In this document: positions 50,048 to 50,215 of the stretch, in pieces
How the letters are laid out: each line of letters opens with the position of its first letter
How positions within the stretch are numbered: the first letter of the stretch is position 1
DNA from: an uncultured Candidatus Saccharibacteria bacterium
GTDB lineage: Bacteria; Patescibacteriota; Minisyncoccia; Sungbacterales; HO2-52-23
Assembly (NCBI GenBank): GCA_964585475.1
Contig: CAZPDF010000005.1
Coordinates: forward strand, 3,323-67,322
DNA: 64,000 nucleotides
Reading direction: 5' to 3'
Program-made: the position numbers and the translations under genes
The notes under the pieces: generated by a model
The model's database searches: none
Seen by the model: only the letters and a program-made list of their open reading frames with translations
Told to the model about the DNA's origin: nothing

Positions 50048-50215
50048 GTTTTGATAAAATTCTAAATCCTAAGCTCTAAATTCTAAACGGACGTCCTTTA
50101 GAACGTCGTCCTGAGGAGCGAAGCGACGAAGGAACCCCGAGTTCCCTCACTTCGTTCAGGACGACCTACGGTCGGTTTAGGATTTAGGATTTAGAACTTA
50201 GAATTTCTCGCCGTT
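50048..50215. repeat. groES-groEL intergenic palindromic element with TTTAGA-repeat termini and gagcgaagcga core
   Basis: The 5' end ctaaatcctaagctctaaattctaaa and 3' end tttaggatttaggatttagaacttagaattt are inverted. The centre is gtcgtcctgaggagcgaagcgacgaagg...cttcgttcaggacgac. Confidence 0.7.

Follow-up and report, generated by a model that had tools for sequence, protein, structure and literature searches.

The 64,000-nt stretch of DNA analysed here (the window) belongs to contig CAZPDF010000005.1 of assembly GCA_964585475.1 (positions 3,323 to 67,322, forward strand), from an uncultured Candidatus Saccharibacteria bacterium that GTDB places in the Sungbacterales (Patescibacteriota). Its minus strand carries a chaperonin operon in which groES and groEL are separated by a spacer at 50048-50215; as the coordinates of both open reading frames (ORFs) are confirmed by the Pfam domains Cpn10 and Cpn60, this spacer is 168 bp long. 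The encoded GroEL is the single member of its 100%-identity cluster (P0001); its closest named relatives come from Ca. Sungbacteria/Sungiibacteriota (76-81% identity), and the gene order uvrA / CDP-alcohol phosphatidyltransferase / groES / groEL is common to the window and these relatives, which places its source near Sungbacteria within the candidate phyla radiation (Patescibacteria). Across 75 groES-groEL loci, the spacer measures between 4 and 203 bp, with a median near 42 bp: a first-pass annotation of the window held that such spacers are usually short, and a length of 168 bp, although long, is not unique. The same annotation described inverted TTTAGA-type arrays around a GC-rich palindrome. 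We confirm that anatomy: both arrays are detected by Tandem Repeats Finder (TRF), they lie in 36-nt arms that are 81% complementary, and the palindrome between them has a perfect 10-bp stem, GTCGTCCTGA/TCAGGACGAC. Coordinates are collected in Table 1.

Table 1. Features of the groES-groEL region and related arrays in the window, with the corresponding groES-groEL spacers of relatives
Feature	Position or length	Strand	Basis or content
groES (98 aa)	50216..50512	-	ORF; Pfam Cpn10, E = 2e-32
groEL (551 aa)	48392..50047	-	ORF; Pfam Cpn60_TCP1
Control region 5' of groES	50588..50644	-	Promoter, then CIRCE operator
12-bp hairpin CUCGCCGUUUUA-gaa-UAAAACGGCGAG	50207..50233	-	Final groES codons paired with first spacer bases
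Stop-proximal heptamer array, 5' arm of outer hairpin	50176..50206	-	TRF period 7, 4.4 copies, 87% matches
72-nt block splitting the stop-proximal (5') arm	50104..50175		Deletion fold; model R1; nhmmer unit model
REP-like unit B: GGTC tag, then GTCCTGAAC-GAA-GTGAGGGAAC	50141..50166	-	
REP-like unit A: CGTC tag, then GTCCTGAGG-AGCGAAGCGA-CGAAGGAAC	50104..50135	+	
GC mini-palindrome CGGACGTCC (50088-50096) and extra heptamer TTTAGAA (50097-50103)	50088..50103		Sequence, fold
Start-proximal heptamer array, 3' arm	50057..50087	-	TRF AAATTCT x4.4 (plus strand)
Solo TTTAGRG x4.4 array	13682..13712	+	Ends 1 nt before the ATG of pyrG (CTP synthase)
In-frame array pair: (AGAATYK)n 16585-16609, (AAATTCT)n 16665-16693	16585..16693	+	In ORF 16424-16852
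L204 spacer	18 bp		No repeat
L001 spacer	25 bp		No repeat
L002 = L205 spacer	64 bp		Inverted ACGAATA-type repeats
L003 spacer	78 bp		CAATTTT / GAAAATT arrays
L125 spacer	90 bp		AGGGTAT / AGCCAAT arrays
L207 spacer	100 bp		TACGAAT arrays
L124 spacer	111 bp		TTCTAAW arrays, A/T-rich loop, TTTAGGA-TTTAGAG-TTTAGTG-CTTAGAA before ATG
L206 spacer	142 bp		AAATCCR / TTTGGAT arrays

The mRNA corresponds to the minus strand, and we describe the elements of the spacer in their order from the groES stop to the groEL start. At the groES end is a 12-bp hairpin, in which the stop codon UAA opens the 3' half of the stem; the complementary 3' half is missing in relatives. No U-run follows this hairpin on the mRNA strand, the terminator match at 50207-50233 being on the plus strand only; a scan found no terminator-like site on the minus strand inside the spacer, and an intrinsic terminator was rejected as an explanation. 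The stop-proximal array then reads AAAUUCUAAGUUCUAAAUCCUAAAUCCUAAA in the sense of the mRNA, i.e., AAATTCT-AAGTTCT-AAATCCT-AAATCCT-AAA (50206-50176), or 4.4 copies of TTTAGRA on the plus strand (TRF unit TTTAGAA). Its counterpart, the start-proximal array, reads UUUAGAAUUUAGAGCUUAGGAUUUAGAAUUU (TTTAGAA-TTTAGAG-CTTAGGA-TTTAGAA-TTT, 50087-50057) and ends 9 nt before the groEL AUG. With 4.4 copies each, both arms are period-7 tandem arrays of at least three copies and beyond chance. The two arrays are mutually inverted (TTTAGRA / TYCTAAA), and their arms are 78 nt apart. Folded together with short flanks, the spacer reaches -85.6 kcal/mol, compared with -49.5 +/- 4.5 kcal/mol in dinucleotide shuffles (z = -8.1). 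This helix starts 9 nt beyond the groES stop and ends 9 nt short of the groEL AUG, which places both the AUG and the 9 nt in front of it outside the main helix.

The GC core of this structure occupies neither the apex of the hairpin nor the interval between its arms: instead, it interrupts one arm. When the 72-nt block 50104-50175 is deleted, the remaining 96-nt spacer folds as a plain heptamer hairpin (-32.1 kcal/mol) with GGACGUCC at its tip; the apex is then formed by 50088-50103, which the mRNA strand reads as one heptamer, TTCTAAA, followed by the mini-palindrome GGACGTCCG. The block itself consists of an inverted dimer (50104-50166) of units that resemble repetitive extragenic palindromes (REPs), plus 9 bases (50167-50175) that, together with C50166, which they share with unit B, read CTACGGTCGG. 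Each REP-like unit follows the plan (C/T)GTC-GTCCTGAGC-NNN-GCGAAGGAC: a stem of 9 positions that includes tandem G.A mismatches, and a variable loop of 3 nt. Unit A opens with CGTC at 50104-50107 and has a short internal insertion, like that of locus L042. Unit B reads GTCGTCCTGAACGAAGTGAGGGAAC; it fits the GAACGAAGTGAAGG sub-variant found at L015, L039 and L116, and matches GTCGTCCTGARCGNAGYGARGGAMC with 0 mismatches. No target-site duplication is visible around either the 72-nt block or the whole structure.

We retrieved other copies of the core by searching one genome per species with a stem-only pattern, GTCGTCCTGA-N30-55-TCAGGACGAC, which returned at least 119 loci. Most of these loci have a common internal consensus that reaches beyond the stems: TGTCGTCCTGAGCGnAGCGAAGGACCTGC, a variable loop of ~15 nt, and GCAGGTCCTTCGCnnCGCTCAGGACGACA. 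Among the matches listed are dozens of copies in single metagenome-assembled genomes (MAGs) of Gemmatimonadaceae, as well as copies in Alpha- and Gammaproteobacteria, Acidobacteria, Planctomycetes, Legionella shakespearei, and a MAG of Uhrbacteria, a lineage of the candidate phyla radiation (CPR). A covariance model, R1, was built from 51 elements of other phyla, with the window left out, and was searched against 164 kb: it matches the window at 50101-50169 (35.4 bits, E about 2e-7 for the 164 kb) and the Uhrbacteria element (30.4 bits), with no further match in the window or its relatives. An nhmmer model of the single unit finds both arms in the window (E = 0.009 and 0.11), and only these two in ~1 Mb. 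Judged by these sequence matches, the GC core is a member of a palindromic family, GTCGTCCTGAGCGnAGCGAAGGAC, which we define here and which is spread over phyla. In the 64-kb window the family is represented by a single dimer, with no sign that it has proliferated there.

Another observation to emerge from the alignment of the family concerns the fold of its arms. Each arm can form a hairpin by itself, GTCCT-GA-GC-NNN-GC-GA-AGGAC, for which the consensus gives -9.1 kcal/mol. The central triplets of the two arms vary independently of each other, and four sequences carry double changes, G67A + C74T in three of them and G15A + C25T in the other, that keep the pair within the unit and break the pair between arms; these features lead us to favour the unit hairpin. 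The within-unit double-change variant of the alignment is also present in unit B of the window. With respect to genes in GC-rich genomes, 17 copies are convergent, 14 tandem, 6 divergent and 15 'intragenic', counts that were taken from naive ORF maps and are indicative only. The unit is also present on 12 viral contigs. In Candidatus Uhrbacteria (L061, JACRQE010000003.1), the dimer at 2457-2529 lies in frame in a 261-aa endonuclease-III-like ORF (2037-2822), where it encodes ...RRPERSAAKSKDLF.... In the window, no match to IS200/Y1 or to any transposase was found among ~55 ORFs, and the sole recombinase is a XerC/D-like integrase. The gene for this tyrosine recombinase (20326-21327) overlaps at its 3' end an inverted repeat, 21272-21313 / 21336-21377, with 42-nt arms that are 76% complementary.

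These properties invite comparison with the CGTC/TGTC-tagged REP superfamily, which includes RPE-4 and RPE-6 of Rickettsia and dRS3 of Neisseria (Di Nocera et al. 2013, PMC3733652). CGTC-tagged REPs have been defined by a stem of 8-9 bp whose first two positions are A-T pairs, a loop of 4-5 nt, and a CCA-like tail; they form inverted dimers, can nest in larger palindromes and can be part of the reading frame of repair genes, and no transposase is dedicated to them (PMC3733652). Several of these features recur here: an unpaired (C/T)GTC head (CGTC in unit A; GGTC, with one mismatch, in unit B; TGTC in the family consensus), a stem of about 9 positions, and an inverted arrangement in which the heads of the two units point outward and 5 nt lie between the units, as in the dimers of PMC3733652, Additional file 3. 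Furthermore, copies of the family lie between genes or downstream of them, and at times in the reading frame of a repair gene, as does the Uhrbacteria copy; the dimer of the window sits inside a larger palindrome; and no transposase is associated with the family. On the other hand, the stem in the window starts with G-C/T-A rather than A-T/T-A and contains two tandem G.A mismatches, the loop is 3 nt, the tail is CTG/C rather than CCA, and the arms extend to about 30 nt; nor does the single dimer in the 64-kb window amount to multi-copy dispersal in its host. In view of these differences in stem composition, loop length (3 nt) and tail, and of the single copy seen, we term the core REP-like and do not assign it to the superfamily. 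The consensus GTCGTCCTGAGCGnAGCGAAGGAC is absent from the text and supplements of PMC3733652 and from the literature searched; likewise, neither the sequences nor the peptides of the family, taken as literal strings, had a match in the literature searched, and the RepRanger paper is silent on it.

The groES-groEL spacer was compared in 8 distinct relatives, L002 and L205 counting as one (Table 1). A search of metagenome contigs with GroEL yielded only two close loci, L124 and L125; most of the proteins returned were distant (55-62% identity), and their loci were of use in the heptamer survey described below. Six of the 8 relatives have an inverted short-repeat hairpin in this spacer, built from differing units. 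The most instructive case is L124 (66% GroEL identity), which has a TTTAGRR heptamer hairpin like that of the window, without the GC core. Indeed, none of the 8 relatives has the core in its groES-groEL spacer; together with the simple hairpin that is restored by deleting 50104-50175, this indicates that the nested core is an insertion. In length, the spacers of the relatives range from 18 to 142 bp, and each of the long ones is made of repeats; an equally long spacer free of repeats, which would have spoken against the first-pass annotation, was not seen among them. The repeat-free spacer of L001 has a TTTAGA seed 8-13 nt before its ATG. The outer arms are a habit of the lineage.

We also found heptamer arrays elsewhere in the window. 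With up to 2 mismatches allowed, the pattern TTTAGRAYTTAGRAYTT occurs 11 times against 0.35 expected, and all 11 matches fall in three places: the groES-groEL spacer, 13682-13712 and 16666-16689. The second of these accounts for the TTTAGA motif that had been noticed near 13670-13710, and its sense orientation is the same as that of the groEL-proximal array. The third is part of an array, 16665-16693, that had been reported as an in-frame copy inside an Ada-like gene. It does lie in frame in ORF 16424-16852, encoding ...SLNSKSQILNSGG..., and 25 of 28 positions are identical to the groEL-proximal array (hand comparison); the name 'Ada-like', however, is weak, since the Ada_Zn_binding match (E = 0.002, 18.4 bits) is below the Pfam cut-off of 23 bits. 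The array pair at this locus forms a weak hairpin (z = -1.9). Overall, the window contains 8 period-7 arrays versus 1.7 in shuffles, or 4 versus 0.05 under a strict definition; periods 8 and 9 are not enriched in the window.

Three further gene junctions in the window carry elements of a comparable kind. Between the acylphosphatase gene and rplI (ribosomal protein L9) is an 80-bp hairpin (11827-11906; z = -5.9) with TTACGAA/TTCGTAA (TACGAAT-type) arms. The junction between the gene for an S11 D-Ala-D-Ala carboxypeptidase and mraY (32066-32220) is a 155-bp composite palindrome (-63 kcal/mol, z = -6.0), also with TACGAAT-type arms and with the GC hairpins CCGGAACCG/CGGTTCCGG and AACGCC/GGCGTT in its interior; its 5' arm begins at the base after the stop codon and its 3' arm ends 2 nt before the ATG. 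The termini of these two elements are identical (CTTTACGAA ... AAATTCGTATTTCGTAAAG). In the complete relative CP066690, the S11-mraY junction (L001 16630-16720) consists of TAA followed directly by GTG, a gap of 0-3 nt from stop to start: this junction is empty, and the 155-bp element of the window was therefore gained exactly at the stop/start junction. The third of these junctions, def-fmt, has a 36-bp palindrome at 4480-4515, TATTCGC / TTATTCG. Within fmt (3346-4383, minus strand) are a perfect in-frame TTTGTAA x4.4 array at 3805-3835, encoding ENYKLQITNYK, and at 4135-4198 an equally perfect in-frame inverted repeat of 20 bp around a 24-nt loop, with ...PRTFSEPVDSRAKRSSEKVRG... as its translation; from their sequence, both look like insertions, palindromic or of simple sequence repeats (SSRs), into the conserved methionyl-tRNA formyltransferase. 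Other palindromes in the window are a perfect one of 46 bp just downstream of dnaK (59927-59972), one of 34 bp between the convergent uvrC and dnaJ (57405-57438), and further long perfect or near-perfect palindromes in gaps at 23564-23599 and 56442-56479; in all these intergenic palindromes, that of def-fmt included, the arms lie 0-2 nt apart, and in some they are made from repeated 7-8-mers. Outside the window, the atpB-atpE spacer of L003 (2296-2350), in another highly expressed operon, has a (TTGTAGR)n / (GCTACAA)n inverted-array hairpin.

A survey of the window, its relatives and 78 more distant groEL loci recovered 175 arrays built from 124 different heptamers. Neighbouring arrays are inverted rather than direct at a ratio of 12:1, and the same heptamer recurs in 13.4% of cases within a locus versus 6.3% between loci. 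Many distant loci (L128, L145, L155, L158, L178, L190 and others) have an inverted-array hairpin just upstream of groEL. Families of heptamers common to different genomes were considered and rejected, as the diversity is too high (124 kinds in 175 arrays). Heptameric SSRs are over-represented in the intergenic DNA of many bacteria, which has been ascribed to polymerase slippage, and include GGGAATC/GGGGAYT of Xanthomonas and Nostoc (PMC4692102); heptamer arrays that abut start codons lacking a Shine-Dalgarno sequence have been described in Beggiatoaceae (TAACTGA), cyanobacteria and Bacteroidetes (PMC4679880). The arrays described here resemble the short tandemly repeated repetitive (STRR) sequences of cyanobacteria and the repeats of Xanthomonas/Nostoc and Beggiatoaceae in their period of 7, their 2-6 or more copies, their intergenic position, and their occasional inverted pairs and in-frame copies. 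Like described heptamer repeats, they often end a few bases from a start codon without Shine-Dalgarno sequence, and they change rapidly in length and sequence between relatives. They differ in that the unit is not fixed, that the unit of the window is TTTAGRR and not CCCCAGT, TTGGTCA, CAACAGT, GGGAATC or TAACTGA, that they typically form inverted pairs that fold as a hairpin from stop to start, and that the host is a CPR bacterium. In the literature searched, we found no paper that links heptamer repeats to CPR/Patescibacteria.

The control region of the operon lies upstream of groES. A promoter scan identified a sigma-70-type promoter, TTGACA-16-TATAAT (50644-50617), that matches the consensus at 12 of 12 positions; it is followed at 50614-50588, as read directly from the sequence, by an operator of the type named controlling inverted repeat of chaperone expression (CIRCE), TTAGCAGTC-N9-GAGTGCTAA. 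CIRCE, the HrcA operator, is likewise an inverted repeat in the groESL operon, but one that stands upstream of groES; a CIRCE in the spacer was rejected, there being no CIRCE-like sequence there. The window also encodes hrcA (63230-63940), grpE, dnaK and dnaJ. These form a minus-strand heat-shock cluster, hrcA-grpE-dnaK-(335-aa ORF without Pfam match)-dnaJ (57458-63940), ~7 kb from groESL with uvrA/uvrC in between; the UvrC encoded there (55858-57327, plus strand) has 489 aa, compared with 497 aa in L003 and 424-427 aa in L001 and L002. Directly upstream of the groES start codon, at 50515-50548, a 17-nt unit, AGCTTCTTAGCTTTTTT (plus strand), is present in two exact copies; L002 and L125 have heptamer-array hairpins at the corresponding position of the groES 5' leader. 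Bearing in mind the consensus promoter and CIRCE upstream, the presence of hrcA in the window, and the lack of a terminator-like site on the mRNA strand of the spacer, we infer that groES, spacer and groEL are co-transcribed.

Taking these observations together, we consider it probable that the spacer nests one kind of palindromic repeat within another and that this composite forms part of the groES-groEL mRNA. Most likely it is palindromic DNA of a tolerated or selfish kind, carried along in the groESL transcript that starts at the CIRCE-controlled promoter. The composite has two layers. The first is a hairpin with arms of tandem heptamers, here TYCTAAA behind the stop of groES and TTTAGRR ahead of the start of groEL; such hairpins are built at gene junctions by genomes of this lineage and by many other metagenomic genomes whose groEL loci were examined, the heptamer differs by locus and genome, and the hairpin usually spans from a few bases after a stop to a few bases before the next start. 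The second is the 72-nt insertion in the stop-proximal arm, which carries the REP-like inverted dimer. The whole block is predicted to fold out as an extended hairpin of ~150 nt, which would bring the stop of groES, although 168 nt away in sequence, to within ~18 nt of the groEL start at the base of the helix, so that coupled or adjacent translation of groEL could survive the insertion. Two origins are possible for the arrays themselves, either slippage of the polymerase at a local TTTAGA seed and subsequent template switching at the quasi-palindrome, or a foldback-type transposition: in-situ expansion is favoured by the TTTAGA seed that already exists in the repeat-free L001 spacer, and dispersal by the identical termini of the two TACGAAT elements and by the 25/28 identity of the 16665 array to the groEL-proximal arm.

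Co-transcribed intercistronic palindromes have well-known consequences in Escherichia coli, where REPs and the bacterial interspersed mosaic elements (BIMEs) that they compose, e.g., at malE-malF, act as barriers to 3'-exonucleases and alter the relative output of cistrons. By analogy, the stable stems in the spacer may slow 3'-exonucleases, protect the 3' end of groES, or provide a site for a double-strand RNase, and an effect on the groES:groEL ratio, as the first-pass annotation had supposed, is plausible. Unlike REP/BIME elements, that of the window is much longer and composite, and is not high-copy as far as is visible.

Several points weigh against the reading of the spacer as tolerated repeat DNA. 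Most relatives have kept a hairpin in the spacer despite complete turnover of its sequence, and this persistence could reflect selection for function rather than repeated neutral gain. In addition, of 17 informative spacers, 13 have the C-rich strand as their stop-proximal arm (p = 0.049), a borderline bias that palindromes acting purely at the level of DNA do not predict. As for the core, the R1 score is partly circular, since 20 of the matched positions belong to the 10-bp stems that served as search key, which leaves the 15-20 nt inside each arm as independent signal; and beside the one REP-like dimer of the 64-kb window, ~1 Mb of groEL loci, from Sungbacteria-like genomes and others, contained none. 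Little evidence speaks for a dedicated function of the spacer hairpin.

The first alternative, which we regard as unlikely, is that the spacer is a dedicated RNA regulator, setting the groES:groEL ratio through endonucleolytic processing and differential stability, through enforced translational coupling, or through melting of the A/U-rich outer stem at high temperature, by which the initiation region of groEL would be freed. The very stable fold (z = -8.1) would suit such a role, as would the placement of the helix base 9 nt from both stop and AUG, and the absence of a Shine-Dalgarno-like sequence before groEL; the hairpin at this junction in 6 of 8 relatives, its sequence fully turned over, and the weak 13:4 bias in arm orientation point the same way. 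In 32 long spacers, however, sense and antisense strands fold equally well (18 versus 14; mean difference -0.1 kcal/mol; 77 versus 106 G.U pairs), and this lack of asymmetry gives no sign of selection at the RNA level. Like architecture also occurs at junctions that have nothing to do with heat shock (rplI, mraY), two relatives manage with plain spacers of 18-25 bp, and among the spacers compared the GC core is found in this genome only. The spacer matches no Rfam family, whether at the gathering threshold over the whole window or at E<=10 over 49950-50700, where only tRNAs and noise were returned. An RNA thermometer of the ROSE (repression of heat shock gene expression) or fourU type was rejected in particular: neither the AUG nor the 9 nt ahead of it take part in the main helix, no sequence resembling Shine-Dalgarno is present, and Rfam is silent.

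Somewhat more doubtful is a second alternative, that the whole block of ~150 bp is one mobile element, inserted as a unit, with the TTTAGA arrays as its terminal inverted repeats. Miniature inverted-repeat transposable elements (MITEs) and eukaryotic foldback elements have inverted termini of short tandem subrepeats, a variable centre and no coding function; the spacer, too, has inverted arms built from subrepeats, a variable centre and no coding capacity. The 81% complementarity of its 36-nt arms is in keeping with this model, as are the related arrays at three loci in the window, with the 25/28 identity found by hand comparison, the common termini (CTTTACGAA...AAATTCGTATTTCGTAAAG) of the two TACGAAT-type elements, the empty junctions of L001 and L204, and the higher recurrence of a heptamer within a locus (13.4%) than between loci (6.3%). 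Yet the junction of L124 carries these same arrays but no core, and the core comes from a separate, cross-phylum family and splits one arm. The array at pyrG is solo, arrays elsewhere likewise being single at times, and the copies have no common internal sequence. Moreover, unlike MITEs and foldback elements, the block has no visible target-site duplication, no sequence conserved across a family and no known transposase, the XerC/D-like integrase being the sole recombinase among ~55 ORFs; and the TTTAGA seed, rightly placed in the empty L001 spacer, favours growth in situ. A MITE in the strict sense was rejected, since inverted arms are present but neither a flanking direct repeat nor a second copy of the internal sequence is found in the window. 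The proposal in the first-pass annotation of a mobile insertion within the operon therefore holds for the GC-core block, which was inserted and belongs to a dispersed family, but not for the TTTAGA arrays: the hairpins of 6 of 8 relatives, the coreless L124, the solo pyrG array, the split arm and the missing target-site duplication argue that they are not its terminal inverted repeats.

Least credible, and in our view very improbable, is that the start-proximal array is an internal groEL promoter (with the 13682-13712 array serving pyrG likewise) whose three 7-bp periods set a 17-bp spacing: a promoter scan does find TTTAGA-17-TAGAAT at 50087-50059 (9/12), and the same array in the same orientation adjoins pyrG, but the region has 4 promoter-like matches against 4.3 in shuffles, the resulting transcript would be nearly leaderless, the heptamers of relatives at this position (ATTCGTA, CTATTGG, TTTGGAT, GAAAATT) provide no -35/-10 hexamers, and the partner array, being inverted, would drive antisense transcription of groES.

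Both layers of the spacer belong to repeat types already known from bacteria, and the spacer is not a new regulator of the chaperonins: for the chaperonin operon, the true regulator is the upstream consensus promoter with CIRCE, with hrcA nearby, and the odd spacer is mostly repeat DNA. For annotation, in-frame copies of such repeats lengthen real genes, e.g., fmt and the 142-aa ORF. The REP-like family, with its nearly fixed 25-nt arm, is common to Gemmatimonadaceae, Proteobacteria, Acidobacteria, Planctomycetes and two CPR lineages, and this sharing across phyla argues for horizontal spread or for a common mobilising or binding activity. Streamlined CPR genomes are usually thought to be poor in repeats, and here heptamer-array hairpins are placed precisely at operon junctions; inverted heptamer arrays that fill stop-to-start junctions of CPR bacteria, with a nested cross-phylum REP-like palindrome, are undescribed in the literature searched. 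We advance only as a tentative generalization, with the odds against it, that Sungbacteria-like and other CPR-type genomes carry undescribed junction-filling foldback elements with arms of arbitrary heptamers, which would arise or insert exactly between stop and start, would be tolerated or exploited as folding restores the proximity of stop and start, and would offer landing pads for REP-like palindromes exchanged across phyla. If this were true, such elements would provide a shunt-like route for coupled translation in genomes that make little use of Shine-Dalgarno sequences.

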